This document shows, one piece after another, positions 1,706-54,658 of a stretch of 64,000 bases of DNA. How positions within the stretch are numbered: position 1 is the stretch's first letter; every line of letters starts with the position of its first letter. Source of the DNA: an uncultured Bdellovibrionales bacterium. Lineage in GTDB: Bacteria; Bdellovibrionota_C; UBA2361; J135. A program made the position numbers and the translations under genes. The notes beneath the pieces were generated by a model. It was not told the DNA's origin. It searched no databases and saw nothing but the letters and a program-made list of their open reading frames with translations. The stretch lies in assembly GCA_964523015.1 (NCBI GenBank), contig CAZFXN010000001.1:8976-72975 (forward strand), in the 5' to 3' direction.

Positions 1706-3820
1706 ATGGCAACCGGCTCTACTGCGACACTAGTCTCAGCAACCATGCAATTAAGTGGAGAATTCAGCCAAGCCCATATCTTGGATGCGGTGGTTAATTC
1801 TCCAATCGGCAATCTTGCGATCTTTATCTATATAATTTCAGCTATCGGATTTTTTATCAGCGTTGCCTTTTTTCAAAATTATAAAATGGGTATCTGGCTA
1901 GTATTTGGCCCTGCTCTCTGGGATATCTCGGCAAATACAAGAGCAGAACAGGTAAATTTAAATTGGATGTATGCTGGGACGGTAGTACAAGATCAGGATT
2001 GGTTAACTCAATTTAGTAACCAAAGTCTTACTGATGACCTCTCTCTTGATAAGGGTCCTGCAACATTATACGTACTATGGGACTCTGTTGTTAGCGGAAC
2101 TGTACAGAATCTAACCGGTTTACTAGCTAAGATTACAAACGATCCTGCAACCAGGCTTTTTGCCAAAACTAATATTCAGGAGGGAATGCTTGGATCTATG
2201 ATCCAGAGTCCTGAGATAAGAGAGGCTGTACGGATCGCTATGGGCCCAGATTGTACTCCAATGGTCCCTGTTAGTAAGGGAAATGAACCAAAAGAGTGGA
2301 ATTTTTTAGAGATTGATGAACTAGAAACAGCACTTGATAACAGATTAGTTAAGGGAGTTCCAGAATCTGTTGTTCGAAAGTTATGTGAATACTCGATGGT
2401 CTATGAGATCTGGCAGTATGGTTCAAATTTAGAATTTGATCAGATCGATACAGAGCCGTGTGTTGTCAATCCATGGGGAGCTATAGGAACCTTTTCCCTT
2501 GGAAACTCAGAGAAATCAAGTTGTCTAGAATTTTCACGAACTACTTGGCAGGCACTTCAGGTAAGCGCTGAATTAAGATTACGAAATCTATATAAATCGT
2601 CAGGAGCAAACTCTTCAGGTGTTAGCGCACTCGGCAGAGATATCTTACCACAGTGGTCACTTGATATGTTGGCACAAGATGACTCTTCGTTAAAAAAACT
2701 TGTGGCTAGCTACATGCTCAAAAATGAGATGGATGATCTTAATTTTTTAAATCCTTCTCGCTCACTATCTGATGGGGGGAAAACTGAATCAGAGCTGAAT
2801 AAACCAGTGGAAGCAATTGTAGGTTGGCTTGAGAGAGAATCAGCTCAGAGCCAAGCTGTATTTTTTGCAAAATCAGTTCCCTACTTACAAGGGGCACTTC
2901 TTTATACCTTAGCAATTGTATACCCCTTTATCTGCATTATTATGCTGATACCTGGATTTCATACTGCAATGATCACCTGGATGGGTGCTTGGGCTTGGGT
3001 TAAGAGCTGGGATATTATGCTTTACGTCATAAGTCTCCTCTCCGGCATTATGTCAGAAAACATTCTGCATAAAGGGATGCTTCATAATAATATCGTGCAG
3101 AATGAATACGTGGGTACTGATGGAAGTGTCTCAAGCTTTGCAGATAATGTAGTCAGCAGATTGGAGGATATTAATTTTCTACATCTCGCAGTTTATAAAG
3201 CATTTGATGACGTGGATCCAAAGTTCGTTGAAGGTATTATTAACTATATCGTTGCGCTTTCGACAATCTCGATCCCTGCTATTACTGGTATATTCTTTTT
3301 ATGGGGCAGAGCATCCTCTCTCAGCTTATTCACTGATGGCATGAAAAATAAAGCAATGGATGCAACGTCAAGAAGAGCTGCTCAACTTCAAGATCAGTGG
3401 TTAAGAGATATCGAGATCGGACGACAACAAGAAGTTCGAACATCAAGTGCTGTAGGTGCTGCTTGGGGATCAGGTATCGGATTTGCACTAGGAAACTTGC
3501 CTGGCGCAATGGTTGGTACTGCTCTTGGTGCTGTTGCTGGGGAGAAATTTGGTTCTGTTAGTGCCGGATATGACCGTGGGCCAGAAGCAGCTCTATACGG
3601 AGGACGTCCGATGGTTGTCTCCTCTGGTGACTTACTAGATCCGTGGGAGAGCATGACTACTGCAGCAGGAGCCATGGTAATCCAGAAACATTTACTTGAT
3701 GCAACCGGTCAAGCTGAGGCTGATCCAGTATCAACCTATATAAATGGCCCAGATAGGTTAAGGCTAAATCAGAACCTACTCGGAAATAGAAGAAACTTTA
3801 TCTGGGGCGGATCAAGATAG
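1706..3820 (+). CDS. traG: TraG-like polytopic membrane protein (VirB6-like N-domain) of F-type T4SS
   Basis: 704 aa with multiple hydrophobic helices in the first ~550 aa and a Gly-rich C-terminal segment (GAAWGSGIGFALGNLPGAMVGTALGAVAG). It follows the traH-like gene with a 19-nt gap. Confidence 0.45.
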   Translation: MATGSTATLVSATMQLSGEFSQAHILDAVVNSPIGNLAIFIYIISAIGFFISVAFFQNYKMGIWLVFGPALWDISANTRAEQVNLNWMYAGTVVQDQDWLTQFSNQSLTDDLSLDKGPATLYVLWDSVVSGTVQNLTGLLAKITNDPATRLFAKTNIQEGMLGSMIQSPEIREAVRIAMGPDCTPMVPVSKGNEPKEWNFLEIDELETALDNRLVKGVPESVVRKLCEYSMVYEIWQYGSNLEFDQIDTEPCVVNPWGAIGTFSLGNSEKSSCLEFSRTTWQALQVSAELRLRNLYKSSGANSSGVSALGRDILPQWSLDMLAQDDSSLKKLVASYMLKNEMDDLNFLNPSRSLSDGGKTESELNKPVEAIVGWLERESAQSQAVFFAKSVPYLQGALLYTLAIVYPFICIIMLIPGFHTAMITWMGAWAWVKSWDIMLYVISLLSGIMSENILHKGMLHNNIVQNEYVGTDGSVSSFADNVVSRLEDINFLHLAVYKAFDDVDPKFVEGIINYIVALSTISIPAITGIFFLWGRASSLSLFTDGMKNKAMDATSRRAAQLQDQWLRDIEIGRQQEVRTSSAVGAAWGSGIGFALGNLPGAMVGTALGAVAGEKFGSVSAGYDRGPEAALYGGRPMVVSSGDLLDPWESMTTAAGAMVIQKHLLDATGQAEADPVSTYINGPDRLRLNQNLLGNRRNFIWGGSR

Positions 3821-3929
3821 AGTTGCAGTAATCTAACATGCTGATTTTAGGTAATATTTTAAAAACATTGAATGATCAGGGGATCAAACTCACTAATAGT
3901 ACTGATATGGTAAAGAGAAGTGTCAATTT

Positions 3930-4352
3930 GTGCCTATTATTAGATCTATTACATTAATAGAACGAGAGAGGAATGGTATGAGATATCTTTATTGCTTAAT
4001 CGCCCTAGTGTCGTTTTTGTCTATATCTTCTGCAAGTTACGCTGATGCGGATTTTGAAAATAGAACCCCCAAAGCCTCTGCAAAATTAGAAGGCGCCAGT
4101 GGTGAAACACTAGCTTCTGCGGTTGGACATTATGCTAGGTCCCGTTCCTTACTTATTGAAGCTATTAGAGAATTTGATAGGGCCAATAAAATTGCAAGGC
4201 CAGACTCCATATTAGATAGCGAAGAGTGGAGAAGCTCACTTATCTCAAGAGCTGAGGATCTTGAACGGATCCTTTCCCCGCAGCCTAGGGTTACCAAGGG
4301 CGGAGTAAAATTTGAAGCTGATACTAGGCTCTTAAATGTCACCAATAAGTAA
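3930..4352 (+). CDS. secreted hypothetical protein (T4SS locus)
   Basis: ORF with an internal Met at ~3978 giving signal peptide MRYLYCLIALVSFLSISSASYA and a charged soluble domain. It sits between the traG-like and traL-like genes. Confidence 0.4.
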   Translation: MPIIRSITLIERERNGMRYLYCLIALVSFLSISSASYADADFENRTPKASAKLEGASGETLASAVGHYARSRSLLIEAIREFDRANKIARPDSILDSEEWRSSLISRAEDLERILSPQPRVTKGGVKFEADTRLLNVTNK

Positions 4353-4433
4353 AGATCATACATAACTATTTGGAGTCACTCTGAAGTTTTACGAAATTAC
4401 AGGGATGAAATTGAAAGATTAAGTTGAGGGAAG

Positions 4434-4859
4434 ATGGATAACGGAGAGGTAATTGGAGCATTAAATGAAGACTGGAACTTTGCTGGTGCAAATCTGCCTG
4501 AGTGGATGTCTGGCTTTGTTGTTTTTCTCATTGCTTCAGAGATGTTCGACAAGATTAGTCGATCGATGCCGATCCTGCTGATGATGTGGATAGGCACAAC
4601 TTTTCTTTTAGCTGCTGCAAGAAAATCATTTCCTGATGAAGAGCGTGGCTTAAGAAATGCAGTCATGGTTGCACTTGGATTTATTCCAATTGGACTTCCA
4701 GCTCCATCTAAATTTTGTCCGATGTGGAGTGGCGCTCCAGTTAAAGAGTTAGGAGAGGATAGTCATTACCAAACTTTAAGATTAGATGAAGCAATTTTAC
4801 GGATTGATGACGGGGAAGAGCCAAACCCTACATACACTCCAAGAGTAGTGAGACAATAA
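4434..4859 (+). CDS. traL: TraL-like small inner-membrane T4SS protein
   Basis: 141 aa with two hydrophobic helices (FVVFLIASEMF; MMWIGTTFLLAAA). It sits immediately upstream of the traE-like gene, as in the F-type traL-traE-traK-traB order. Confidence 0.35.
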   Translation: MDNGEVIGALNEDWNFAGANLPEWMSGFVVFLIASEMFDKISRSMPILLMMWIGTTFLLAAARKSFPDEERGLRNAVMVALGFIPIGLPAPSKFCPMWSGAPVKELGEDSHYQTLRLDEAILRIDDGEEPNPTYTPRVVRQ

Positions 4860-4880
4860 ACAAGGTTATTATAGGTAAAT

Positions 4881-5525
4881 ATGGGAAAGGTTGCGGAGAT
4901 ATTAAGAGCTAGTGAACTGAGAGCCCCGCTCAGTGATAATGACACCATTCGATTATGGGAGAGTCATCAGGAGCAAGCCACACTCTGGCGCTCATTAACT
5001 TTAATTCAAGTTCCAATTACTTTAATCTCTTTAGTACTAGCTCTGGTTTTATGGAGCACAAGAAGCGTAACGCTGAATGTTCCAGCTAAACCATTGCCTG
5101 GAATTTATGCTGCTCAAGATATTCCCGATAGTGAATTTATTGATTTTTCAACTGACTACATTAATTTAATTGCAACATATCAACCAGCAGTTGCTCGTAG
5201 ACAGTTTGAAGAGGCTAGACGAATGCTTTGGAGCCAGATGATTCAGGCTTTTGATTCCGACATGATGGGAACAGAGCTAAGAGCGATCGAAAACACGAAG
5301 CGTACTCAGATCTATTTTGTTGATCCAACAAAAGTAGGAATTAAACGGGAAGGACGAAACGTAACCGTATCTCTTCTTGGTGATCGTTATAAAATTATTG
5401 CTGGCAAAGAGATGCCTGCAGTTAAAACTGAATTTGTAATTACAATGAATACAATTCCAAAGAATAAGTTTAATCCTTATGGAATTGTTGTGACCAATGT
5501 AGCTCTTAAAAATGTGGAGAAATAG
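4881..5525 (+). CDS. traE: TraE-like (VirB8-type) bitopic T4SS protein
   Basis: 214 aa with a single N-terminal TM helix (LIQVPITLISLVLALVLW) and a ~150 aa periplasmic domain. Position is between the traL-like and traK-like genes. Confidence 0.5.
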   Translation: MGKVAEILRASELRAPLSDNDTIRLWESHQEQATLWRSLTLIQVPITLISLVLALVLWSTRSVTLNVPAKPLPGIYAAQDIPDSEFIDFSTDYINLIATYQPAVARRQFEEARRMLWSQMIQAFDSDMMGTELRAIENTKRTQIYFVDPTKVGIKREGRNVTVSLLGDRYKIIAGKEMPAVKTEFVITMNTIPKNKFNPYGIVVTNVALKNVEK

Positions 5526-6342
5526 GATTTTACAAAAGGCAAGCTGTATGGAAACAAAAGTAAAATTGAAAAGTATTGCTCTCATATTCTTACTAGTTGG
5601 TATTGCGACTACCGCTCTAGCTAGGGATGTTGAGTATAACGAGGGCGATGGGGAAATCTCTATCTGGGTAACACCAGGAGAACCAACAAGAGTAGCATTT
5701 CCCGCTATGATTGCTGGTGGATATAAGCGCAAAGATTCAAGTCTTGTCCTTGATAAAAAGGATCATGATCTCATTTTATTTGGCAACCAAACTATCTCTC
5801 CAAATGGAGAAGCTTTTATTGTTCGACTTGAAGATGGACGCTCTTACTCAATTCGAGCTAAAAGAGCGAGTGCTGATAAACCTCGTGATGATGCGGTAAG
5901 TATTACTGACAGTCGTGGCTCAATAATTCTTTCAAAAGAGGAGGAAGAACCAACTTATAGAGAGAAAAGATTTGAGTATGCCCCGCCTAGTCAGATAAGT
6001 GGCTTAATGCGTGAAATGGTTCTGACATCTGAGTTTGGTAAATCAACGATAGCTGGATATCGAAAAAGTGAAAAGTATAGAGGACAAGTTGTACTTAGTG
6101 ACGGCACAATGTTGGCTACTATTGACACTATCTTTATTGGGCCAAATCTTTGGGGATATGTTTTAGATACAAAGAACTTATTAAATACAACACAGAAAAT
6201 TAATCCAGCATCCTTCAGACTTGATGGCACAAGAGCTGTTTCAGCAAGCAATTGGGAATTAACTCCTAAGCCATTTAATATTGAACAGCAGATTGCTGGA
6301 AAAGATTCAACAAAAATTTATATCGTAACTAAGGCACGCTAG
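5512..6342 (+). CDS. traK: TraK-like (VirB9-type) secreted T4SS protein
   Basis: 276 aa with a signal peptide (LKSIALIFLLVGIATTALARD) and a beta-rich domain. It overlaps the traE-like stop and precedes the traB-like gene. Confidence 0.5.
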   Translation: MWRNRILQKASCMETKVKLKSIALIFLLVGIATTALARDVEYNEGDGEISIWVTPGEPTRVAFPAMIAGGYKRKDSSLVLDKKDHDLILFGNQTISPNGEAFIVRLEDGRSYSIRAKRASADKPRDDAVSITDSRGSIILSKEEEEPTYREKRFEYAPPSQISGLMREMVLTSEFGKSTIAGYRKSEKYRGQVVLSDGTMLATIDTIFIGPNLWGYVLDTKNLLNTTQKINPASFRLDGTRAVSASNWELTPKPFNIEQQIAGKDSTKIYIVTKAR

Positions 6343-6352
6343 AAAAGTAAGG

Positions 6353-7528
6353 TTGCATATGAAACAAAAGATTAAAGATTACTTACTACTGCTACAAAAT
6401 GATCGGAAGACCCAGATCTTAACGGGCATTGTACTGGTTATGTTAGTGGCATTTGTGTTTAATTCTCCACCAACAAGGGCCCCACAAAAAGGACCTAAAG
6501 TAACTCAACTTGGAACTGGCGGAACAGGGACTAAAGAAGCTTATGAGGATCTTTTAAATGCGTTCTCTCGAGATCTACAAGTTACCCAGGATCAACTAAA
6601 AAAAGTACAGCAAGAACTAAAGGATAAAGACAAATCCTTCTCTGATTACGACGCTAAAACAGCAGCTATCTTTACTAAAATTCTTGAAAGAATGAATTCT
6701 GGTGAGATGGGAAGTTCTGGCGGGGTTAGTGGGGCTTATGCTCCAATTGATATAGACGGTAGTTCTAGTGCAATTGGAGCTTCTGGATCATTAGCACCTG
6801 GCTCACAGGAACTTGAGCCGTTTGGATTAGATCAATCAGATCCATTACCTCCTCCACCTCCTCCAAGAAACAGATCAGCTTTCGTAGCAGTTGGTGACTC
6901 AGTAAGAATTAAACTTCTTGCGGGCGTGAATGCTCCAACAGACGGAACTCCTTATCCTGTAGTTTTTAAACTAGATGATGACGTGCTTGGTCCTGATGGA
7001 TCTCGCTTGCCATTAGGAGAAGCAAGACTTATTGCCGCAGCCCAAGGATCGCTTAGTGATTCTAGAGCACTCTTTAGACTTACCGATCTTAGCATTAGAC
7101 TTCCTGATGGCCAAAGACGGACTTATAAAGTTGATGGATGGGTTGTCGGAGAAGATGGCATTCGTGGCATGAGGGGAAGGTTAATCGATTATCTTGGCAA
7201 GGCTCTTGGGGCAGCTGGTGCAATTGGTGCAGCAGAAGGGGCAGCAAATGCTCTTCAGGCTGCAAAAACAACTTCTGTTATCTCAGATGATGGAGGTCTC
7301 TCTAATATCGCCACTGGAGGTACTGCTGAATTTATTACTGCAGGTGCTCTATCCGGAGGATTAGGAGCATGGGGAGATATTATCAAGGATCGAATCGATC
7401 AGTTAGTACCACATGTAGAAGTATTGTCTGGCAGAGGAGCAACAGCAATATTTGCAAAATCTGTAGTTATTGATGGTCTATTTGAAGCTCTTGAGGACGA
7501 TAGCACTGCCTTTGGTTCATTAGATTAG
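6353..7528 (+). CDS. traB: TraB/VirB10-like T4SS envelope-spanning protein
   Basis: 391 aa with an N-terminal TM helix (ILTGIVLVMLVAFVF), a Pro-rich linker (DPLPPPPPPRNR) and a C-terminal beta domain (VRIKLLAGVNAPTDGTPYPVVFKL...DGWVVGEDGIRGMRG) typical of VirB10/TraB. The track start is TTG at 6353; ATG at 6359 has a better RBS. Confidence 0.55.
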   Translation: MHMKQKIKDYLLLLQNDRKTQILTGIVLVMLVAFVFNSPPTRAPQKGPKVTQLGTGGTGTKEAYEDLLNAFSRDLQVTQDQLKKVQQELKDKDKSFSDYDAKTAAIFTKILERMNSGEMGSSGGVSGAYAPIDIDGSSSAIGASGSLAPGSQELEPFGLDQSDPLPPPPPPRNRSAFVAVGDSVRIKLLAGVNAPTDGTPYPVVFKLDDDVLGPDGSRLPLGEARLIAAAQGSLSDSRALFRLTDLSIRLPDGQRRTYKVDGWVVGEDGIRGMRGRLIDYLGKALGAAGAIGAAEGAANALQAAKTTSVISDDGGLSNIATGGTAEFITAGALSGGLGAWGDIIKDRIDQLVPHVEVLSGRGATAIFAKSVVIDGLFEALEDDSTAFGSLD

Positions 7529-7545
7529 TTTTTTGTGGAGTTGTT

Positions 7546-8010
7546 ATGAAAAGTAATAAGAGTGGGCTTTTAAAAATTGTGATGGTTGCTACAGCATTAT
7601 TCATCTCAGGGTGTACAGCTATTGGAGATAGATTAAATCCATTTCAAGAGGAGCCAGATCCAATTGCTTTCTTGGGAGATCGAGATGATCACGCTCTAAA
7701 CGGAACAAAAGCGAAAGAAGAGACCGCCAGAACTGCCCTTGAACAGATGGCTAGCTATAGAAGGACGAACTTCCCAGAACCGGTACATCCAGTTATACAA
7801 CCAGCCGTTGTAAGACTTATGTGGATACCGGATCACTTAAACAAAAGCGGGGATCTAGTTCCAGACCACTACTATTATTTAAAAGTTCTTAGCGATCGCT
7901 GGGCAGTACAGGATGCCTTTGAGCTCGAGTCACAACTTGGTCCAAACAAGGATCCAACAAATTTACCTTACGTATATAGCGATGATCGAAAAACTATAAG
8001 AGGACGGTAA
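7546..8010 (+). CDS. traV: TraV-like outer-membrane lipoprotein
   Basis: Lipobox LFISGC. C-terminal VRLMWIPDHLNKSGDLVPDHYYYLKV resembles the TraV signature (RvWvaPw.D..GdLh...yvY). Confidence 0.55.
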   Translation: MKSNKSGLLKIVMVATALFISGCTAIGDRLNPFQEEPDPIAFLGDRDDHALNGTKAKEETARTALEQMASYRRTNFPEPVHPVIQPAVVRLMWIPDHLNKSGDLVPDHYYYLKVLSDRWAVQDAFELESQLGPNKDPTNLPYVYSDDRKTIRGR

Positions 8011-8026
8011 TATTTATTAAGTTTAG

Positions 8027-8596
8027 TTGAATATGATTACTGAGAACAGAAAAACATATATAGCAGCAATAAAGGTAGTCGTACTCTTGGGATGCATTGT
8101 CTTTCTCGTTAGCTGCTCAAGCCAAAAACCTCCTGTTGCGAAAACACCACCTTTATATGACACGGCAAAAAGACAGTTAGCTCCTGAGCCGGTTTATAAT
8201 AGACTGCGCTGGGTCCATTTACCTGAAGTTATTCCTTACAAGGACAATAACAAGGACAAGAAAAAAATCTCTAAGAGCCAAGACTCACTAGAAGACAGGC
8301 CAATGATTTTTCCAATTATGAATTTTGATCTCAAAGATGGAACATTAGCTGAAGCTGCCCAGATGATTGGGGCTAGTGCCAGTTATCGTAGCTACTGCGA
8401 TCCATCAATCGCAGACAAACGACTATCTTTAAATATGCTTGGCACAATTCATGAGTTAGCCAATAGTATTTCAAGGTTAGTTGATGTTGAGATTATAATT
8501 GATCATTCTGCTAGGGAAGTTAGGTTTATGCCCCTAGGCGTAGAGAATAAATTAAGGTTTTTTGATAATACGGTAAGTGAATATGAGCATAGATAG
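8027..8596 (+). CDS. T4SS-associated lipoprotein with secretin-N/TcpQ-like C-terminal domain
   Basis: Lipobox LVSCSS. The C-terminal segment LAEAAQMIGASASYRSYCDPSIADKRLSLNMLGTIHELANSISRLVDVEIIID has an STN/N0-like pattern. It overlaps the traC start by 20 nt. Confidence 0.4.
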   Translation: MNMITENRKTYIAAIKVVVLLGCIVFLVSCSSQKPPVAKTPPLYDTAKRQLAPEPVYNRLRWVHLPEVIPYKDNNKDKKKISKSQDSLEDRPMIFPIMNFDLKDGTLAEAAQMIGASASYRSYCDPSIADKRLSLNMLGTIHELANSISRLVDVEIIIDHSAREVRFMPLGVENKLRFFDNTVSEYEHR

Positions 8597-11351
8597 GTTA
8601 ACACGGGCTCGACTTTATAAAGATGAAGCTCTGTTTAATAAACTACTCCCTTTTGCCAGATATGATATCGAGCAAGGTGTGTTTGTACACGCCGATGCTT
8701 CATTATGGTTGATGTACGAGTTGGAGCCTCTCCTTATAACTGCCACCTCTGATGCCTCTGCTTATCAAACATGCTCTAGTATTCAAGAGCTCTTAGATTC
8801 ATTAGATGTTAGTATTAGTGTCCAGTTTAATTGGGTGGTAACGTTCGACATTGAAGGTCTACTTCAAAAGGCACTCGAGCAGTACCCAGTATCCGGCGTT
8901 GCTGGTTGGATGGCTCGTCGCTGGAACAGAATGATGAAAAAGGCAGCTCGTAGCTCTTTTATTCATCAACGACCTAGAAAAATGCGACTTATCCTTTCTT
9001 TTAGACATGATCCACCATGGAGCAAGGGAAATATATTTCAAGAGCTTAAGAGAGCTTTTTCTATCCTGATTAAAGGTAATGTTGGATTCTCTGCAGATCA
9101 AAGACGAGCAGAGTATCTAAACTACGCCAACAAATTTAAAGGAGAGATTGAGGGTAAAGTATCTCGACTAAGAGACCTTGGTTTCTATCCAAAAAAAGTT
9201 GATGGGCAAGCTTTAATTGATACACTCTATCCGATACTGAATCGACGAAGCGTTAAAGGTGGTAAGTTTAAAAAAGGGCGCACCTCCTCAATCCCTGTGC
9301 CAGTTTTTGATCCGCTTGATTTATTATCAAATCAACTCTCTGAAACTGCTGTTGAGCATCCGCAAAATGGTATTATCAAAAAAGATGGTAGAGTTTTTAG
9401 AACTGTCTCGATGGTAAAATCTCCTAATCAAGCTTTTCCTCTGATGATTGCTCCGCTTCAATCGGCGCCATATGAAAATATTATAAGTGTTACTTATTCA
9501 AAAGATCCGATGCAAGCTCAGATCAAAAAACTTGATACGCTTGATAGCACCCTTGGTCTTCGTGAATTTACTAGCATGGGTAGAGGTAATCAAAAGATTC
9601 AACATCAGATTAGATCTATTAGGGCCGCAAGAGAGAGCTTATATAATAACTCCACTCAAATTGTCCGATTAGGTATCCATCAAACATTTATCTGTCAAAA
9701 TGAACAGGAAGCTATCAGAGCAACCTCTGAGGCAATGGCAGCTTTTCCTCAATTAAATGGTGCTCGTGGCATGGTTCACGAAATTGCTGACCTTGGTGTA
9801 ATGATCAATTCATTACCGGGATGCTATGAGCCAGCACTTGATGGACGTGGATGGACATCTGTATTGCAATCTTCACGCGCAGTTAGAATGCTTCCTTTAT
9901 GGGGCAATTGGAAGGGCAGTAAAGGCTCACTCTTTCTCCTACCAAATCTTTGGAACCGTGAATTAGTAGGATTCGATCTATTCGACTCTAATATTGCACC
10001 TAACGTATTAATAAGCGGAGTATCTGGTGCTGGTAAGAGTTATCTCCTTAACTTTCTTCTGATAACTCTTAATAGAGGGCACTATTCAACTCTCGCAAAT
10101 GGAATGACTGTTGAACGTCCACCAATTACCTTCGTCTTTGACAAAGGAATGCCTAATCAACCGTGTGGATTTGAAAAGATTGCTCATCTATTTGGTGGAA
10201 GAATATACGAAGCTACCCCTTCTAAAGCACCAGCCATGAACTTCTTGGCTCGCTTAGGAGACTGCCCTCACGATAACACCAACGAAGATTTCAAAGATCT
10301 AGTGGATATCTGCTCTGACATAGTTGCAGATATGGCTTCTGAAAATAATCGTCCGTTATCACGACTTCAGGTAGGTGATATTATCACTGCTCTTTTAGAA
10401 GCCCATAGAATCTATAGAGCTGGTCCAATGAAGAGGCAGTTTATTTTAAGTGATGTTGTCGCAGTTCTCCGTGCTCCAAAGAGAGTCGATGAGGATGAGG
10501 CTACAGCTATGCGTCGTGTCGAGATCGCTCTTTTAATGTCTGAGTACTATGGAGAGGGTACATATGCTAGATTCTTTGATAGACCAGGAGCATTAAGACT
10601 AAAAGAAAGATTTATCGTGTTCGATCTTAAGGGATTAAGTAGAAATCCTGACCTACAAAGGGTATTTTTAAAGATCGCTATGCTCTGGGCTGACGAGGTC
10701 ATGAACGATCCAAAAGAGCTCGACTCGAGAAAGGTTCTTGTGTTCGACGAAGCTCATGATCTTATCGGTAAAACATCTTCAGGTGTTATCGAATCAGCTT
10801 TCAGACTTTATCGTAAGAGAAAAGGTATTGTTATTGCCGCTTCTCAATCTGGTGAAGATTTCTATGTTGGTGCTGGTGGACAGGCTATCGTACAAAACAG
10901 CGCGCATAAGATCTTTTTGAGACAAGATCCAAGTAAGTTTCATTTAACAGCAAAAGCGTTCAATCTAAATGAACAACAGAGTGATGTAATTATGCGTTTA
11001 CGTACTATTAAAGGTGTTGAATCTCAATTTTATCTTCTCTCAGATATCGGAGAAGCCGCCCTTGTTCTACCTCTTGAGCCGGCGTACTACTGGGTTAGTA
11101 CAAATAATGGTGACGACAATCAATTATTTCAATCAGTACTTCAGGAATGTAATGGTGATTTTGCAGCAGCACTTGAGAGAGTAAGTATTATAGCTCCAAG
11201 TGGCGCAAGTGCGTTTGCACAGTACAGAGCTGCTATGCAGCAGGCTCAAGAGCAATCTCGAAATGGCGAAAATTCCGTTTCAAAAACAATTAATACCGCT
11301 TTAGGTCAAAATACAGGTTCAAATTCTATTATAAAGGAGCAGCAAATATGA
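8577..11351 (+). CDS. traC: TraC/VirB4-family T4SS ATPase
   Basis: 924 aa with Walker A GVSGAGKSYLLNFLL and Walker B VLVFDEAHDL. The length fits F-type TraC. Confidence 0.85.
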   Translation: MNMSIDRLTRARLYKDEALFNKLLPFARYDIEQGVFVHADASLWLMYELEPLLITATSDASAYQTCSSIQELLDSLDVSISVQFNWVVTFDIEGLLQKALEQYPVSGVAGWMARRWNRMMKKAARSSFIHQRPRKMRLILSFRHDPPWSKGNIFQELKRAFSILIKGNVGFSADQRRAEYLNYANKFKGEIEGKVSRLRDLGFYPKKVDGQALIDTLYPILNRRSVKGGKFKKGRTSSIPVPVFDPLDLLSNQLSETAVEHPQNGIIKKDGRVFRTVSMVKSPNQAFPLMIAPLQSAPYENIISVTYSKDPMQAQIKKLDTLDSTLGLREFTSMGRGNQKIQHQIRSIRAARESLYNNSTQIVRLGIHQTFICQNEQEAIRATSEAMAAFPQLNGARGMVHEIADLGVMINSLPGCYEPALDGRGWTSVLQSSRAVRMLPLWGNWKGSKGSLFLLPNLWNRELVGFDLFDSNIAPNVLISGVSGAGKSYLLNFLLITLNRGHYSTLANGMTVERPPITFVFDKGMPNQPCGFEKIAHLFGGRIYEATPSKAPAMNFLARLGDCPHDNTNEDFKDLVDICSDIVADMASENNRPLSRLQVGDIITALLEAHRIYRAGPMKRQFILSDVVAVLRAPKRVDEDEATAMRRVEIALLMSEYYGEGTYARFFDRPGALRLKERFIVFDLKGLSRNPDLQRVFLKIAMLWADEVMNDPKELDSRKVLVFDEAHDLIGKTSSGVIESAFRLYRKRKGIVIAASQSGEDFYVGAGGQAIVQNSAHKIFLRQDPSKFHLTAKAFNLNEQQSDVIMRLRTIKGVESQFYLLSDIGEAALVLPLEPAYYWVSTNNGDDNQLFQSVLQECNGDFAAALERVSIIAPSGASAFAQYRAAMQQAQEQSRNGENSVSKTINTALGQNTGSNSIIKEQQI

Positions 11352-20226: not shown

Positions 20227-20565
20227 TTAAGATTTCTTAATCTTTGACTGCTCAGGATCTATTATATCTCCAAGATGATCATGATCATCTCGCCATTCTT
20301 TATCTGTAAAATAGAGAAAGCAGAGAATTTCTGCTACTAATTTAAAACTCTCTTCTGGTATTGTATTGCCCGTTTCTATCTTTGATAAAAGATCTGACAG
20401 GGTGTCATCTTTAGTAACTGGCACGCCATTTGATTTAGCAATCGCTACGATCTGTCGAGCTAACTCCCCATATCCTTTTGCTACGATGGTAGGAATCTCA
20501 CTAGCATCATGATATTTAAGCGCAATAGCACGCTCTCGATCCTTATTGTCTTGTTCATCACTCAT
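20227..20565 (-). CDS. FlhB C-terminal domain-like protein (YlqH/EscU-fragment family)
   Basis: IPTIVAKGYGELARQIVAIAKSNGVPVTKDDTLSDLL...EESFKLVAEILCFLYF matches the FlhB/EscU cytoplasmic-domain pattern. Confidence 0.6.
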   Translation of the reverse strand: MSDEQDNKDRERAIALKYHDASEIPTIVAKGYGELARQIVAIAKSNGVPVTKDDTLSDLLSKIETGNTIPEESFKLVAEILCFLYFTDKEWRDDHDHLGDIIDPEQSKIKKS

Positions 20566-21363: not shown

Positions 21364-22245
21364 CTACCTAATTTCCTGTAAGATTAACGCTGTAGGGACT
21401 GGATCTCGTCCTGCAATAGATTGCTCATAGACTAAACTATCATTTTGATCCTTGACTGAAATATAAAGTTGGGCAGAGCCTCCGCCATCTAAATTTAAAG
21501 CGTCCACACAATTTATCCTTGAATCAGTTAGGATTCTCTGTAATTCAGACATTGTAACACCTCCAAAGGTAGATCGTGAGCAGAAAAAAATTAATCGATC
21601 CTGCGCGTCAATACAAACTCCTGCACGACGTGAGGCTACCTGACTCTGCTTCAGGCCCTGCACTGGGTTACCTGAGGAGAGTAATCTTGGCCCAGCTTGA
21701 GTTGCCTCTAAAATCCCATCTACTTGAAAAGCTCCGCGATTGATAATTGAAATCCCATTGTTTGTAACTTGAAATATCCCTGTTAAAACTTTTCCACCCT
21801 TATGGATCGGATTAAGAGATATTCCACGACTTACGATAAGACCAAGTGGTTCTCCATTAGGATCAAAAAAATTTGAGTTGATTGCCAAAACAGCACCTGA
21901 GGAATTAGCAATGGATTTTACAGTGCTTCGGTTTGATCCATATTCCTTTGCTCTAACAACTTTGACACGGAATTTATCTAGTTTAGTTCTGGCAAAAAGA
22001 AGGGAGGCTGAAAAAATACCTCCATCCGTAGTAGATAGTTCAACAACTTCGAAATCTGGTGCTATTTCCTTCCAATTTGGCTGGGGATTGATGGATTTTA
22101 CTGCCTGAATATTCTCTTGTCCCTTATCTGGAGCTGTTTCAGCATAACCTAAAGGTATCGATATTCCGAGACAGAAGCTGATGACTACTGAGGATAACAA
22201 CGAGTGAATAGAAACAGACTGTAACATTAGAAAACAGCGTATCAC
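21364..22245 (-). CDS. secreted phosphodiester glycosidase family protein (NAGPA/DUF2233-like)
   Basis: Signal peptide. SGAVLAINSNFFD...GLIVSRG...ATQAGPRLLSSG...CVDALNLDGGGSAQLY matches the phosphodiester glycosidase domain pattern. Confidence 0.6.
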   Translation of the reverse strand: MIRCFLMLQSVSIHSLLSSVVISFCLGISIPLGYAETAPDKGQENIQAVKSINPQPNWKEIAPDFEVVELSTTDGGIFSASLLFARTKLDKFRVKVVRAKEYGSNRSTVKSIANSSGAVLAINSNFFDPNGEPLGLIVSRGISLNPIHKGGKVLTGIFQVTNNGISIINRGAFQVDGILEATQAGPRLLSSGNPVQGLKQSQVASRRAGVCIDAQDRLIFFCSRSTFGGVTMSELQRILTDSRINCVDALNLDGGGSAQLYISVKDQNDSLVYEQSIAGRDPVPTALILQEIR

Positions 22246-22267
22246 TTAATAAATAAATATACTAAGT

Positions 22268-22305
22268 CCAAAAAAAATAAGCCGGTCAAGGGCTATTGAC
22301 CGGCT
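22268..22305 (-). terminator. intrinsic terminator on minus strand (no annotated gene upstream of it)
   Basis: Minus strand reads gccggtcaatagcccttgaccggc followed by tta-TTTTTTTT, a 9-bp GC-rich stem plus a T8 run. Confidence 0.55.
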
Positions 22306-22840
22306 TACAAGACAGACTGTCTATACCTCGCAAGAGTGGTTCTCTTCAATAAGAAAGCATCTAGAATTTTAACTAACACAAAGACAGAAAGACGTGGGCT
22401 GATGTGTGTGGTTCAAGGAGGTGTCTTTCAAATCCTTATATTCTTAAAAAGTAGACGTATATATCCCTCTTAAATTAGTTCTCCACTTTACAATAGAAAG
22501 TAGAGCAAGCCTTGTGCCAACATTAATGGATCCTTCAGTGTACTGAGATCTAGTCTTAAACAAGGTTTTAACGTCCTCCATCTCATCTTAATCACTAGAT
22601 CTATATTAAAAATTTAGATTTACCTTGATTTTATACCTTCCAGGCCATTAAGAGTTTATATGAACGTCTATCTATACAAGGATCAAAGTAGGCAATTTTT
22701 TCCTAAAAATTCTCTTTACCGATAAAACCTGCCGATCGGTTTTCAGTTGAATTTAATAACTAGATCGATTACCCTGCGCCTTCCGAATTAATAGGCCCTG
22801 CAATTTAACACTATAATCTTAATCCACTGTAAAGTAGTTC

Positions 22841-23374
22841 ATGGAAGAGCAAACATTCAGATCGAGACTTGTTGAGTTATTAAGCAAAAGCAGGAAAGCT
22901 GTCCGACTATATAGTGGGATAAGTCGCTCTAAAAGAGGCTCCGCTCTAGCAGAACTACAAGCAAATGAATGGTTAAGTATTAACTCTGAGCTTGTTACCC
23001 TCCTCTCCTCAATGCTTGATGATCTCTCAGTAAAAAATCTTACATCTGAAGCATCAATATTACTTGAGCAATTCTTATCTCGTTATCAGATAACAGTTGA
23101 GGAGATGCATTCAAAAAAGAGAAAGTTGATTGAACACGCAGAAACATCTGACTTTGCTCAATCTGTTGTATTAAGTCGTGAACTTGTCGCTATTAAGGCA
23201 CGCGCACAGGCACTGCAAGCCGTTTACAATGAGATTAAAGCTACTGTTAAAAGATCTCGTCCAAAAGTTGAGCCTGTCACGATCAATGAGGATGAACTAT
23301 TCACTAAGATAGAAACCGAAAAGCCAACTATGGCTAAGATCATCCCTTTGAGACAAAAGATCAGCTTAGGATAG
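22841..23374 (+). CDS. hypothetical coiled-coil protein
   Basis: 177-aa ORF, charged and helical. No motif recognised. Confidence 0.45.
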   Translation: MEEQTFRSRLVELLSKSRKAVRLYSGISRSKRGSALAELQANEWLSINSELVTLLSSMLDDLSVKNLTSEASILLEQFLSRYQITVEEMHSKKRKLIEHAETSDFAQSVVLSRELVAIKARAQALQAVYNEIKATVKRSRPKVEPVTINEDELFTKIETEKPTMAKIIPLRQKISLG

Positions 23375-26232: not shown

Positions 26233-27450
26233 TTAAACTAGAAATTCGCTAATAGGTTGGCTAAAGAATTCTTCGAGTGGAACCCCACCTGAACCAATAA
26301 TGTATACAGAAGATTTTGGATACAATGACTTAAAGACGGAGAGCCCTTTCGGTGTCTTAGGTAACCCGCTCTTAACCTCTAAAGCAAAAATTTGATCTCG
26401 CTGACTAATTACGAAGTCCACCTCATTTTGACTATCTTGCCAGTACGAAAGGTGCCAACTTTTATCTGGAATTGTATTTAAAATATGAGCACCGACAGCG
26501 TTTTCAACAAGACGACCCCATAAGGTTGTATTTTTCCTTGCAGACTCAAAATCATATGTAAGCGAGGAGCTAACAAGCGCATTGTTCCAAGCTATAAGCT
26601 TAGGACTACTGGCTCTTTTTCTTCTCTGTCCTTTAGCAAATTTTTGAATACCTGCAACAAGATATCCACCATTTAAGAGATCAAGATAGTGGGCAAGTGT
26701 TGTAGTATTTCCGGAATCTTGAAGCTGTCCGAGCATCTTATTGTATGACACCACCTGAGCTGGATAAGTACAAACTATTCCAAAAAGCGCACGCAATAAG
26801 GCTGGTTTATGAACCACCGCCCGTTGAAGTACATCGCGAGATATTGCAGGATCAACAAGCGAATCGGATATATATCTCTTCCAAATAGCTTCCTCCGACC
26901 TAAATACTGCAGCACCTGGATATCCACCAAAGTAGATCCACTCATCAAGGGACCAATCAAACGCCTTTTGACACTCTGTAAAACTCCAGTGCGGGAAATA
27001 ATGTAACAAAAATCTCCCAGCTAGGCTTTCGGTTAATCCCTGTTCAAGTAACAATGCCGACGATCCTAAAATTAGAGGCTTAACTATCTCCTTTCTTTTT
27101 TTCTGCCCACTTTTTTTTTGTCCATCCCATAAGCTTTTAATCACCTCACTCCAGCCATGGATTTTTTGTGCTTCATCTAATATGAGGAGGCACTGTCCGC
27201 TCTTCCTTGCGATAAGATTTGCGGTATTCCATTGAGCTTCTATCCACTCTGGAGTGAGAGGTCGTGGTGAATCTGCACTGGAATAGTGAAAAGGCCAATT
27301 TAAAGTTTGTGCAATCTGTTCTGCTGCAGTTGATTTGCCTACTTGCCTTGGGCCAATGATCGCATGAATGATAGGTGGCGATACCTGCAAAAGTTTAATA
27401 ATCTTTTTTGTTTCTTCCCTGATAATCACTTTATTCAAATCGATCTTCAT
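26233..27450 (-). CDS. AAA-type ATPase with DUF4143-like C-terminal domain
   Basis: Walker A IIGPRQVGKST and Walker B LLILDEAQ. Same family as the ORF at 46973..48142 (paralog). Confidence 0.65.
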   Translation of the reverse strand: MKIDLNKVIIREETKKIIKLLQVSPPIIHAIIGPRQVGKSTAAEQIAQTLNWPFHYSSADSPRPLTPEWIEAQWNTANLIARKSGQCLLILDEAQKIHGWSEVIKSLWDGQKKSGQKKRKEIVKPLILGSSALLLEQGLTESLAGRFLLHYFPHWSFTECQKAFDWSLDEWIYFGGYPGAAVFRSEEAIWKRYISDSLVDPAISRDVLQRAVVHKPALLRALFGIVCTYPAQVVSYNKMLGQLQDSGNTTTLAHYLDLLNGGYLVAGIQKFAKGQRRKRASSPKLIAWNNALVSSSLTYDFESARKNTTLWGRLVENAVGAHILNTIPDKSWHLSYWQDSQNEVDFVISQRDQIFALEVKSGLPKTPKGLSVFKSLYPKSSVYIIGSGGVPLEEFFSQPISEFLV

Positions 27451-46972: not shown

Positions 46973-48142
46973 TCAAATAGTCGAACTAACTCCTAATATT
47001 TTCAATATTCCTTTATCCCACGACATACTTGTAATTGGACCAATCTCTTTTTCGAATGAATCACGACTAAGGCAGTATGCTCCAGAGTGTTTCATATCAG
47101 CAGCCAAAGTTTTAAATGATCCTAGGTCCTCTGGGTAAATTGTTCTAGCAGATTTAATTTCGACAAGAATCGGATCTTTGTTAGGCAACTCAACTATAAG
47201 ATCTATCTCAGCTCCATCTTTAGTTCGTAGATATGAGAATTTAGCTCTTTTCTTAAAATAACTGTTTAGTCGAATGAACTCAAGTATTACATGTTGCTCA
47301 AAAGTATCTCCATATAATGAAGTACTTTCATTTAGAGCTGATTCATTTGTTCTTAAAATTGCACGTGGCACACCGCAATCAAAAAAGTAAAACTTTGGTG
47401 CTTGAGTTTGCTGTTTTCTTATCGACCGACTATATGCTGGTAATATCACACCAATATACGTCTCTTCTAATATTGCAAAATACTCCTTTATGGTGTCAGG
47501 AGTAACACCAACATCCCGTCCAATACTAGAATAGTTCAATATCTTAGTATTCATTTGTGCGGCAACATCAAGAAATCTCCTAAATGGTGGCAACTGTCTT
47601 ATAAGTTGCTCAGCAACAATCTCTTCCTTTAAATAAGTATCTACGTAGGAATGAAGATACTCAATCTTTAACTCCCGACTAGTTAGCTTAGTAAGACTGG
47701 GGAGCGTTCCCCAATCTAGTGCTGACTGAAGATCAAAATCCTCTTTAAGCTCAAGATATGTTAGCGGATACAGTTCGTATAATAGCGCTCTGCCTGCAAG
47801 TAGGTTTGCATTCCCACGTTTTAATTTTCTAGAGCTAGACCCACTAAGGATAAAGATTAAATCATTCTCTTCAATGAGCAGATGCACAACATTAAGTAAG
47901 TTAGGAACTCTTTGAACTTCATCAATAATAATCAGTGATTTAGGAGGCGCTTTTCTGACTCTTTCAACTATCGAATCCGGTCTCTGGCTCAACGAATAAT
48001 ATTCATCATCATTAAGGAGATTTACGGAGAGGTAGGCCTGCGATGCAAATCTCTCCCTTAATATCGTAGATTTTCCTACGGCACGTGCTCCAAACAGGAA
48101 AAAACTACTGTCTTTTAAGGGGGTTATTAATCTATCTATCAT
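46973..48142 (-). CDS. AAA-type ATPase with DUF4143-like domain (paralog of 26233..27450)
   Basis: Walker A LFGARAVGKST and Walker B LIIIDEVQ. Confidence 0.65.
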   Translation of the reverse strand: MIDRLITPLKDSSFFLFGARAVGKSTILRERFASQAYLSVNLLNDDEYYSLSQRPDSIVERVRKAPPKSLIIIDEVQRVPNLLNVVHLLIEENDLIFILSGSSSRKLKRGNANLLAGRALLYELYPLTYLELKEDFDLQSALDWGTLPSLTKLTSRELKIEYLHSYVDTYLKEEIVAEQLIRQLPPFRRFLDVAAQMNTKILNYSSIGRDVGVTPDTIKEYFAILEETYIGVILPAYSRSIRKQQTQAPKFYFFDCGVPRAILRTNESALNESTSLYGDTFEQHVILEFIRLNSYFKKRAKFSYLRTKDGAEIDLIVELPNKDPILVEIKSARTIYPEDLGSFKTLAADMKHSGAYCLSRDSFEKEIGPITSMSWDKGILKILGVSSTI

Positions 48143-53068: not shown

Positions 53069-53914
53069 TTATTTTAGTGCGACAGGTGGCTCAACTTTTG
53101 TTGAAGCATCACTGCTTACGTGACCATGTTTTTTACTCTTACTAATATCCCAGTTATCAATAATTTTTGGCTGAACATGTGGTCGATTGGATACATATCC
53201 CTGATCATCATCTTGCGAAGATGCAAATCTAGTTTGAAACATAGTTAAAGGAACTGAGTATTGAGCTAAATGTTTAACAGGAATCCGCTCAAGACTTGAT
53301 GGCATACTGCCACCACGTAAAAGCTTTGCTACTTCATAGTTCTTAGAAACTTCAACTGACCCGCTTGAAAGAATCATTGATGAAGCTGGATCAATTAACC
53401 TGACATTTACATACACAGTCTCAGGTGAAGCGATGTAAGTCCCAGCTAAGATAGCTGCTAAGTCATGTGATTTTCGTATAGATCCAACATCTCTTGATAG
53501 AGAAAATTCTCCAGCATCTGATAAGAACCTTAGAGCGTCCCCTTGACGCAACTCAATTACATCATATCCGCGCATTACTAATTCACTGATCAACTGTTCA
53601 GCGAATATACGTCCAAATGCAGATGTAGAATATAAATCGTTAAGGTTAACCATTGTGGTTACGCCAATTGGCCCTGAGGATGTTCCACGATAGTAGTAAT
53701 CAATCTGGTCAGCTATGTAAGAGGTCTTAAAGCTCCCCACTCCAAAGTTGTGTGGATTCCCCATATTAACTGGCATATAGGAGGGAACATCGTGATATCG
53801 CTTGCTGCACCCTGACATTGAGACGATAGCCCAAATAAGGATTGTAAGACTTATCGATTGGCCCAATAATTGTATCCAATCTACTTTAGATTTAGCTTTA
53901 TTTTTATCTTCCAT
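53069..53914 (-). CDS. CsgG/LpoB-fold-like lipoprotein
   Basis: Lipobox VSMSGC. Alternating pattern similar to CsgG (IGVTTMVNLND; ILAGTYIASPETVYVNVRLIDPASSMILSS). Confidence 0.4.
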   Translation of the reverse strand: MEDKNKAKSKVDWIQLLGQSISLTILIWAIVSMSGCSKRYHDVPSYMPVNMGNPHNFGVGSFKTSYIADQIDYYYRGTSSGPIGVTTMVNLNDLYSTSAFGRIFAEQLISELVMRGYDVIELRQGDALRFLSDAGEFSLSRDVGSIRKSHDLAAILAGTYIASPETVYVNVRLIDPASSMILSSGSVEVSKNYEVAKLLRGGSMPSSLERIPVKHLAQYSVPLTMFQTRFASSQDDDQGYVSNRPHVQPKIIDNWDISKSKKHGHVSSDASTKVEPPVALK

Positions 53915-53944: not shown

Positions 53945-54658
53945 ATGAGGCATCCGTTCAAAATACTTACTTTGTCTGTCAATCTCTTGACACTTACCGC
54001 TACTCTCGTATTAGCAAGTGGATGCACCACAACACTGAAACATAAGGAGTCGTGCAATTTGCGTGCTTACTTGAATAATGATCTTGAGGAATACATAACT
54101 ACCCGATTTGATTCAAAAGCACCGGTTCGTATGGCCATAGTCCCATTTTCCACACCGGCAAATCTTTCCTGGACCAGTGGAGAGAATCAAGGATTAGGGA
54201 GAGAACTTGCCTGGCGAATTCATAGTGAATTTTTGACGAATTCTACTTTGCCGATCGTGGAAGTTTTTAATCGTGAGGACTGGCCTGGTAAGAAAGAGGA
54301 GTTTTTTGGTGGCAATTTTGGTGCAATAGCTCAAGCACGTGAAGCTGGGTATGACTTTATAATGGTTGGGTTAGTTGAGCCAATGAAGGGCATGGGCACT
54401 CTTACTATGCATTCTAAAATAATCGATGCCGATGCCGGCATTACAGTTTGGTATGGCACAACCAATGTAAAATCAGAAAAATCAAAGATTGATAAAAGTC
54501 CGCTTTACCGTTTTGGTCCTGAAATCAGGCCCGATCTACTTTACTTTGATGAGATGGTCTCAATGGCCGCAAGCTGCACCGTTGATAAGATTACTCAGAT
54601 TGAATACGTTAAGACCCCACCTGCTATGACTCCGCAACGGGCGCAGTTTGGGAAGTGA
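53945..54658 (+). CDS. CsgG/LpoB-fold-like lipoprotein (divergent paralog)
   Basis: Lipobox LASGC. VRMAIVPFSTP...IMVGLVE...TLTMHSKIIDADAGITVWYG. Confidence 0.4.
   Translation: MRHPFKILTLSVNLLTLTATLVLASGCTTTLKHKESCNLRAYLNNDLEEYITTRFDSKAPVRMAIVPFSTPANLSWTSGENQGLGRELAWRIHSEFLTNSTLPIVEVFNREDWPGKKEEFFGGNFGAIAQAREAGYDFIMVGLVEPMKGMGTLTMHSKIIDADAGITVWYGTTNVKSEKSKIDKSPLYRFGPEIRPDLLYFDEMVSMAASCTVDKITQIEYVKTPPAMTPQRAQFGK

Follow-up and report, generated by a model that had tools for sequence, protein, structure and literature searches.

The window studied here, that is, the whole 64-kb stretch of DNA analysed (64,000 nt), contains at 22246-22840 an interval bordered by two genes that are transcribed away from it. 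To the left, the NAGPA gene, which encodes a phosphodiester glycosidase (PF09992), occupies 21364-22227 of the minus strand, and to the right a gene for a 177-aa protein belonging to no Pfam family occupies 22841-23374 of the plus strand; these are the orientations already given in the sequence-only reading of this DNA. That reading had also described the interval as free of open reading frames, and the longest frame in it is indeed only 45 aa long: with a 25-aa cutoff we recovered just three, at 22336-22473 (plus strand, 45 aa, GTG start), 22444-22581 (minus strand, 45 aa) and 22488-22595 (minus strand, at most 45 aa). On the minus strand it had pointed to a terminator made of gccggtcaa/ttgaccggc followed by T8 and ending at about 22268, a position that was right to within 2 nt. 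This terminator, which spans 22308 to 22270 on the minus strand and is supported by the terminator scan, by folding and by covariation, was the one outstanding site in our search for intrinsic terminators. Its stem (22308..22277, GTAAGCCGGTCAATAGCCCTTGACCGGCTTAT) comprises 13 pairs, six of them GC, and is followed by T8 (22277..22270), some 41 nt before the NAGPA start codon at 22227.

A genome scan with the NAGPA protein returned no close relatives, and related loci were instead reached by motif scans and by contig look-ups via protein homologues. The homologues of the flanking proteins belong to uncultured metagenome-assembled genomes (MAGs) labelled Bdellovibrionota, Bdellovibrionales, Oligoflexia or 'Deltaproteobacteria bacterium ... 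BDEL', and the window's own proteins were also found on metagenome contigs of microbial-mat samples. In relatives whose NAGPA proteins are only 52-55% identical, a gene for a protein of 175-177 aa likewise diverges from NAGPA, with a gap of 600-650 bp between the two. When aligned among these relatives, the gap consists mostly of saturated sequence, out of which three islands of identity emerge on the minus strand. The first (22519-22504) reads TTGGCACA-N4-TTGCT and corresponds to the sigma-54 -24/-12 consensus, the second (22423-22398) reads ACCTCCTTGAACCACACACA(T)CAGCC, and the third is a block, TTGCGAGG ... GACAG-TCTGTC ..., that runs into the terminator.

The first island contains an exact sigma-54 promoter consensus, TGGCAC-N5-TTGCT (TGGCACAAGGCTTGCT, 22504..22519, minus strand); about 224 nt separate it from the end of the U-tract downstream. 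An exact TGGCAC-N5-TTGCW occurs only once in the 64 kb, where 0.06 occurrences are expected by chance. Furthermore, a TGGCA[C/T/A]-N5-TTGC[T/A] element is found at the equivalent place in 10 of the 10 lineages compared, while the calculated probability of meeting the 16-nt pattern by chance within an 800-nt region is about 1e-3. Counting 12 nt from the GC of the -12 element, transcription would start at about 22493 (+/- 3 nt), which, with a 3' end within the U-tract, gives a predicted RNA of about 220-224 nt (22270..22493, minus strand); the corresponding length ranges from 196 to 228 nt across the 10 lineages. The earlier proposal that an independent minus-strand transcript should originate within 22306..22800, for which a promoter prediction on that strand had been suggested as a check, thus agrees with a conserved sigma-54 promoter at 22519-22504 and a predicted start at about 22493.

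To open DNA, the sigma-54 holoenzyme requires an ATP-dependent enhancer-binding protein, and a gene that possesses only a sigma-54 promoter is therefore off until a signal is received. Judging from its promoter, the minus-strand RNA gene is probably under such control, and we hold its sigma-54 dependence with good confidence. We found neither rpoN nor a gene for a sigma-54 activator in the 64-kb window or in the fetched flanks of the related loci, and the presence of both in this genome is assumed from what is known of the phylum.

The RNA predicted from 22493 to 22270 (224 nt) folds with a minimum free energy (MFE) of -63.7 kcal/mol (z = -4.33 against dinucleotide shuffles). Its most prominent feature is a 29-nt apical loop, ACCUCCUUGAACCACACACAUCAGCCCAC (22394..22422, minus strand), delimited from the alignments and the folds, with a near-invariant C/A-rich core. 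The core itself, ACCUCCUUGAACCACACACAUCAGCC, is unchanged in alignments A1 to A4, and the GC-rich patch gacgtgggctgatgtgtgtggttcaaggaggtg at 22391-22423, which had been singled out from the bare sequence, is in fact the reverse complement of this invariant loop. In separate MFE folds of the RNAs of all 10 lineages, a long irregular hairpin is capped every time by an apical loop of about 30 nt containing the core, whose mean probability of being unpaired is 0.60-0.86, as against 0.26-0.38 for the rest of the RNA.

The loop is closed by stem P1, formed on the minus strand by GAAAGAC (22423..22429) and GUCUUUC (22387..22393), and reaching in the window to about 22442 on the 5' side and about 22375 on the 3' side. 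Almost every lineage has its own version of this stem, the stem sequences being wholly different in L007, L060, L080 and L081, and the closing-stem variants include, besides GAAAGAC/GUCUUUC, the pairs GGGGAC/GUCCCU, GUAAUGAGC/GCUCGUUAC, GGGCUGGGAC/GUCCCAGCCC and CUACCCAUGGCG/CGCUGUGGGUAG. In the alignment, 89.9% of the P1 cells are paired and seven of the nine pairs show changes on both sides. Folding of seven sequences with RNAalifold yields four helices, namely P1, a 4-bp helix inside the loop that shows no covariation, a small hairpin and the terminator. The small hairpin, GACAG-UCU-GUC (22310..22322, minus strand), is paired in 100% of cells, with compensatory changes in two of its four pairs (GGUAG/CUACC in L060); the palindrome gacagactgtc reported earlier at 22311-22321 is actually this covarying element. 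The terminator stem is paired in 94.3% of cells, with compensatory changes in four of 11 pairs, and it is strong in every lineage, with 10-13 bp and U-tracts of 7-9 except in L082, where the U-tract is interrupted (UUUCUUUUU).

Taken over an alignment of eight sequences, 93.5% of the cells are paired and 14 of the 28 pairs carry compensatory changes, a number that none of 500 shuffles reached; sliding the partners by 1-3 columns lowers the pairing to 29-44%. Pairwise identity between the RNAs is only 42-73%, and the invariant positions cluster in the loop, in the terminator and in a conserved box between P1 and the small hairpin. This box, UUGCGAGGUA (22324..22333, minus strand), contains an SD-like (Shine-Dalgarno-like) GAGG; its GCGAGG is nearly invariant across the eight aligned lineages, and AGCGAGG or AGCGAGA is kept in the distant L080, L081 and L082. 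The GCGAGG box is unpaired in most MFE folds, and in the MFE fold of the window RNA the variable 5' end is base-paired to the first six nucleotides of the box. A pairing of 4-5 bp between the CCUC of the loop and the GAGG of the box can also be drawn, and as both sides are invariant it leaves no covariation signal.

The covariance model R1 was built from the seven-sequence RNAalifold alignment, L082 being left out of the training set. It scores 193.9 bits on the window, detects exactly one copy per locus and recovers the untrained L082 at E = 5.7e-4; it gives no significant detection of L080 and L081 (E ~1), whose membership was assigned by synteny and architecture only. Neither this model nor a search for the core with three mismatches allowed revealed a second copy of the RNA in the window.

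The module made of a sigma-54 promoter, 196-228 nt and a terminator is thus present in 10 divergent lineages of uncultured Bdellovibrionota-like MAGs, which were collected from two directions. On the one hand, genome and metagenome collections were scanned with the 17/18-nt core alone and the matches were classified afterwards. About 55 of these are chance matches, devoid of the TCAGCC continuation and of a sigma-54 element, and nearly all without a T-run. TGGCAY-N5-TTGCT is present, at -87 to -98, in every match that combines TCAGCC with a T-run at +142 to +147; the promoter is thus separated by 87-98 nt from the core downstream of it in the close lineages. The true matches define five lineages, represented by the window (and also L068), L006/7/11, L008-10/13/60, L014 and L028, and wherever the upstream sequence is long enough, a 177-aa gene starting MEEQTF... 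diverges from the element. On the other hand, in the converse search, seven loci were fetched solely via homologues of the 177-aa protein (36-60% identical to that of the window), and in each of the seven the opposite strand shows a sigma-54 consensus and, 196-228 nt further on, a GC-rich hairpin with a U-tract. The 177-aa gene hence adjoins the RNA gene in every lineage, whether the locus was found via the protein or via the RNA core alone.

L080 and L081 retain the promoter, the AGCGAG box and the terminator, together with a loop of CA repeats borne by a perfect 10-12-bp stem, and CCUCCUU is missing from the loop. More generally, a pure (CA)6-8 repeat stands in place of the core in the distant relatives of higher GC content (L080 2640-2655, L081 2590-2603 and L082 2105-2125, all on the minus strands), two of which have lost CCUCCUU. 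Two explanations offer themselves: the CA tract is the part of the loop that is essential, or the function of these distant RNAs has diverged.

In independent lineages, the terminator, the palindrome and the GC-rich patch keep their relative positions while the stems accumulate compensatory substitutions, so that the pattern goes beyond chance. We are highly confident that the region is a real, structured, non-coding RNA gene. The alternative that the terminator ends the mRNA of a small protein, encoded by the 45-aa ORF at 22581-22444 of the minus strand or by that at 22336-22473 of the plus strand, was also considered. ORFs of 35-45 aa are indeed present and one of them lies on the terminator's strand. 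However, this minus-strand ORF begins upstream of the sigma-54 promoter and crosses it, and it has no homologue in any other lineage; neither 45-aa ORF matches a Pfam family. From one homologous region to the next, the ORFs of 25 aa or more do not agree in position, length or strand, and the peptide likeness seen across lineages is limited to stretches of 6-15 aa that translate the invariant core, in different frames. Moreover, base-pair covariation is expected of an RNA structure, not of a coding sequence. As no ORF is conserved in frame, position or sequence, we rejected a small-protein gene, the chance of which we consider negligible, and a short coding sequence missed by the ORF list, which had been named as a possible refutation of the RNA locus, does not lie behind the terminator. 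The label 'antisense' given to the locus at the same time has to be dropped, the opposite strand holding only the unconserved 45-aa GTG ORF; with no conserved gene or ORF facing it, this is an intergenic, trans-encoded sRNA gene.

Could the RNA be instead a cis-acting 5' leader, with the sigma-54 promoter driving NAGPA and the terminator serving as a conditional attenuator or riboswitch-like element? The NAGPA strand is the one that bears the terminator, about 41 nt upstream of the NAGPA start, and NAGPA is the downstream gene in most lineages. However, L014/L077 carry the element in front of a gene for a 1718-aa protein, L081 has a methyltransferase gene in that place and a further relative a cellulase gene, and between about 40 and about 300 nt separate the element from the next gene. 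All lineages have a strong terminator, with the one interrupted U-tract of L082, the consensus fold offers no conserved alternative antiterminator pairing, and no Rfam riboswitch or leader family was matched. As the downstream gene varies, the element is tied to the 177-aa gene and not to the gene that follows it. A NAGPA leader or attenuator is thus improbable, the RNA staying in place while the downstream gene changes, although some read-through into NAGPA is possible in the window, where the start codon is so close to the U-tract.

The region upstream of the promoter was inspected for sites at which an activator could bind. Between a colinear block, AATTCAAC, and the sigma-54 element, each lineage contains two to four GGCA/TGCC tetramers, often arranged as inverted pairs (GGCATAAATT...AATTTATGCC in L076, GGCAATTGTTGCC in L028), at positions that vary from -40 to -240. 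In the window, a GGCA ... TGCC inverted pair at -240 and -201 from the predicted start marks a candidate enhancer region at 22691..22733. Over seven lineages we counted 20 such tetramers against 3.4 +/- 1.8 in shuffled sequences, and none of 2000 shuffles reached 20, a figure that applies to a motif chosen post hoc; an unbiased search for 9-mers in the upstream regions did no better than shuffles. That these repeats are activator sites is plausible, but the motif having been picked after viewing the data, the enrichment is suggestive only. In the window, two 9-nt arms, AGATCTAGT at 22594-22602 and ACTAGATCT at 22546-22554 of the minus strand, also form a perfect inverted repeat, separated by 39 nt and located 27-83 bp upstream of the -24 element; it was not seen in the other lineages. 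The AATTCAAC block, colinear in six lineages, reads TTGAAT-N17-TA(n)CCT on the other strand and is better read as the putative -35 of the divergent gene's own promoter. In the window this sigma-70-like promoter, TTGAAT-N17-TACCCT, lies at 22747..22775 (plus strand) and implies a 5' UTR of about 57 nt for the 177-aa gene; TTGAAT/TTGAAA-N17-18-TA(n)CCT is colinear in the window, L076, L060, L014 and L078.

What the RNA does has to be read mainly from its loop. The part ACCUCCUU is identical to the 3' tail of the 16S rRNA and is followed by the CA tract GAACCACACACAUCAGCC; the 3' end of the E. coli 16S rRNA being ...GAUCACCUCCUUA, ACCUCCUU equals its anti-Shine-Dalgarno tail, and the loop reproduces 8-9 nt of it. 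The molecule is built like a trans-acting sRNA, in that it exposes one highly conserved stretch and ends in a hairpin and a U-tail. The reading we favor, to which we give a probability of roughly 0.6, is that it represents a new family of sigma-54-dependent trans-acting sRNAs whose exposed loop would pair with ribosome-binding sites. In such a model, the sigma-54 RNA polymerase would sit on the -24/-12 element (22519-22504) as a closed complex until an ATP-hydrolysing enhancer-binding protein, probably the product of a gene elsewhere in the genome and bound to the GGCA/TGCC repeats that lie 60-240 bp upstream, opens the promoter, so that the RNA would be made only on a specific signal. Transcription from about 22493 to the terminator (22308-22270) would give an RNA of about 220 nt, composed of the long irregular hairpin with its 29-nt loop, the GCGAGG box, the small hairpin and, at the 3' end, the U-tailed terminator. 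The loop, through ACCUCCUU and GAACCACACACAUCAGCC, would most likely pair in trans with the SD regions of mRNAs and with GU-rich sequence just upstream of them, thereby blocking ribosome binding.

The last step, action by pairing at ribosome-binding sites, is the one we put forward most tentatively, its odds, as judged from the loop, being slightly below even. With RNAduplex, the loop found no target shared between lineages among the start regions of the local ORFs. The best local match, the ribosome-binding site of a 237-aa ORF at 53945, was discarded since it is merely a generic GAGGTG. Among the window ORFs of at least 150 aa, 12 of 50 (about 24%) have a GGAG, GAGG or AGGA tetramer at -22 to -4, against a background of 12%; the organism thus appears to use Shine-Dalgarno sequences sparingly, and some start codons may be misassigned. 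With only about 24% of the ORFs preceded by an SD-like tetramer, SD-directed repression would be limited to a subset of genes, and the seed would be selective rather than global. Since L080 and L081 have no CCUCCUU, the anti-SD part may not be a universal functional element.

Of the loop's features, conversely, the CA tract alone is shared by all 10 lineages, and this makes a protein-binding decoy the main rival of mRNA pairing: the CA-rich loop and/or the GCGAGG box would titrate an RNA-binding protein, as GlmY, CrcZ or CsrB do, of which the adjacent 177-aa helical protein is one possible example, and no mRNA would be paired. The unusual length of the loop (29-33 nt) and its invariance over 19-26 nt, beyond a typical seed, are in line with such a role, as are the strict linkage to the 177-aa gene and the lack of a conserved mRNA target among the local genes. 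However, no known bacterial RNA-binding motif fits, the RNA having neither a repeated loop GGA nor A-rich ARN repeats, and each RNA has a single copy of the element, where a sponge would usually have several sites. Nor has the 177-aa protein a recognisable RNA-binding fold. Finally, ACCUCCUU is invariant in eight lineages, exactly what SD pairing needs. Altogether we regard the decoy as unlikely and retain the trans-acting sRNA that pairs at ribosome-binding sites as the preferred reading. A bolder version of it, which we consider quite doubtful, is that the RNA is a signal-induced mimic of the 16S 3' tail that would compete with ribosomes for SDs, which only a minority of the genes in this genome use, perhaps as a ribonucleoprotein with the co-inherited 177-aa protein and with the GCGAGG box gating the loop as an SD-like partner within the RNA. 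If this were true, such a mimic would reprogram the translation of the SD-dependent subset of genes.

The 177-aa protein belongs to a lineage-restricted family of 39 homologue clusters (P0099-P0137). Its structural model is a four-helix bundle (pLDDT 85) with a disordered tail that ends in the conserved AKVIPLRQ. It has no Pfam match above the cutoff and no PDB sequence match, and the fold search returned only generic helical-bundle matches, with no relative of known function. In one relative (the P0109 contig), the 177-aa gene precedes flgK-flgL-csrA. The window itself contains a free-standing FlhB C-terminal-domain protein (Bac_export_2, 112 aa; 20227-20565, minus strand) and a FlgO-family protein (53069-53914, minus strand). 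Motility is a common sigma-54 theme, and flgK-flgL-csrA, the FlhB-C-like protein and FlgO weakly hint at a motility-related context. Elsewhere in the window, a plus-strand cluster at 1706-11351, whose products match the conjugative type IV secretion proteins TraG_N (below the Pfam cutoff), TrbI, TraC_F_IV and P-loop_TraG weakly to moderately, suggests an integrated conjugative element or a type IV secretion system at the window's left end, and two paralogous AAA_14 + DUF4143 ATPase genes lie about 20 kb apart (26233-27450 and 46973-48142, both minus strand).

Not one Rfam 15 family reached its gathering threshold anywhere in the window, and ARAGORN found no tRNA or tmRNA. The sequence-only reading, which had suggested an Rfam scan and had seen no likeness to tmRNA, RNase P, SRP or 6S RNA, is therefore upheld on this point, these classes being among those covered. 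Even at E <= 10, the region and seven homologous loci gave nothing consistent: the sub-threshold matches (CyaR, snR63, SorX and Hrs13, E 0.7-1), which are at chance level in the region, are to different families in different homologues, and that to CyaR visibly aligns on the terminator hairpin. In the literature and in Rfam we found no sigma-54-dependent sRNA described for Bdellovibrionota-like bacteria. To our knowledge very few such sRNAs are known at all (Qrr, Pxr, GlmY, CrcZ, NfiS and a few others), and they sit at lifestyle switches such as quorum sensing, development, cell-envelope synthesis and carbon catabolite control. The RNA described here gives an uncultured branch of the Bdellovibrionota a defined regulatory RNA, with a promoter type, a fold backed by covariation and a candidate seed. 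It also links an RNA family to an uncharacterised, lineage-restricted protein, and provides a covariance model usable for the annotation of MAGs.

How does it compare with the known systems? The Qrr1-5 RNAs of Vibrio, controlled by sigma-54 and LuxO, are about 100 nt long and often multicopy, with qrr1 adjoining luxO. The RNA described here would share with them the dependence on sigma-54 and an activator, the intrinsic terminator and a conserved single-stranded region pairing at ribosome-binding sites, but it is single copy in 64 kb, twice as long, unrelated in sequence and without an Rfam match. GlmY and CrcZ, sigma-54-dependent protein-decoy sRNAs of gammaproteobacteria, have in common with it the control of a non-coding RNA by sigma-54 and the possibility that a protein, not an mRNA, is bound by the conserved single-stranded element. 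CrcZ has several A-rich motifs and GlmY is a mimic of GlmZ, whereas the present RNA has one CA/anti-SD loop and shows no detectable homology to either.

Pxr, from Myxococcus xanthus and its relatives, is a 108-nt RNA with three stem-loops, encoded directly downstream of the gene for the enhancer-binding protein Nla19 (PMC5568312). It resembles the RNA described here in being a stand-alone intergenic sRNA gene with an apparent sigma-54 promoter and several predicted stem-loops, whose syntenic position is fixed within a lineage formerly counted as 'deltaproteobacterial' (PMC5568312). Set against this description, and by it rather than by sequence comparison, our RNA is distinct: it measures 196-228 nt, forms one long hairpin with a 29-nt invariant loop, and diverges from a 177-aa non-regulator gene, with no activator gene nearby and NAGPA as its other neighbour. 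Regarding the mode of action, the mycobacterial 6C RNA exposes a C-rich loop that is complementary to SD-like sequences and is its likely seed (PMC6486639). Such C-rich-loop sRNAs, which include the staphylococcal RNAs with a UCCC motif, have in common with the present RNA an exposed C-rich loop as the likely seed, and differ from it in phylum, promoter, size and fold, the loop being here a 16S-tail sequence extended by a CA tract. By analogy, Pxr, Qrr, GlmY and CrcZ would be its closest functional counterparts, and C-rich-loop sRNAs such as 6C the closest in their mode of action. The RNA belongs to none of the families compared, and we propose that it forms a new one within the sigma-54-dependent sRNAs.
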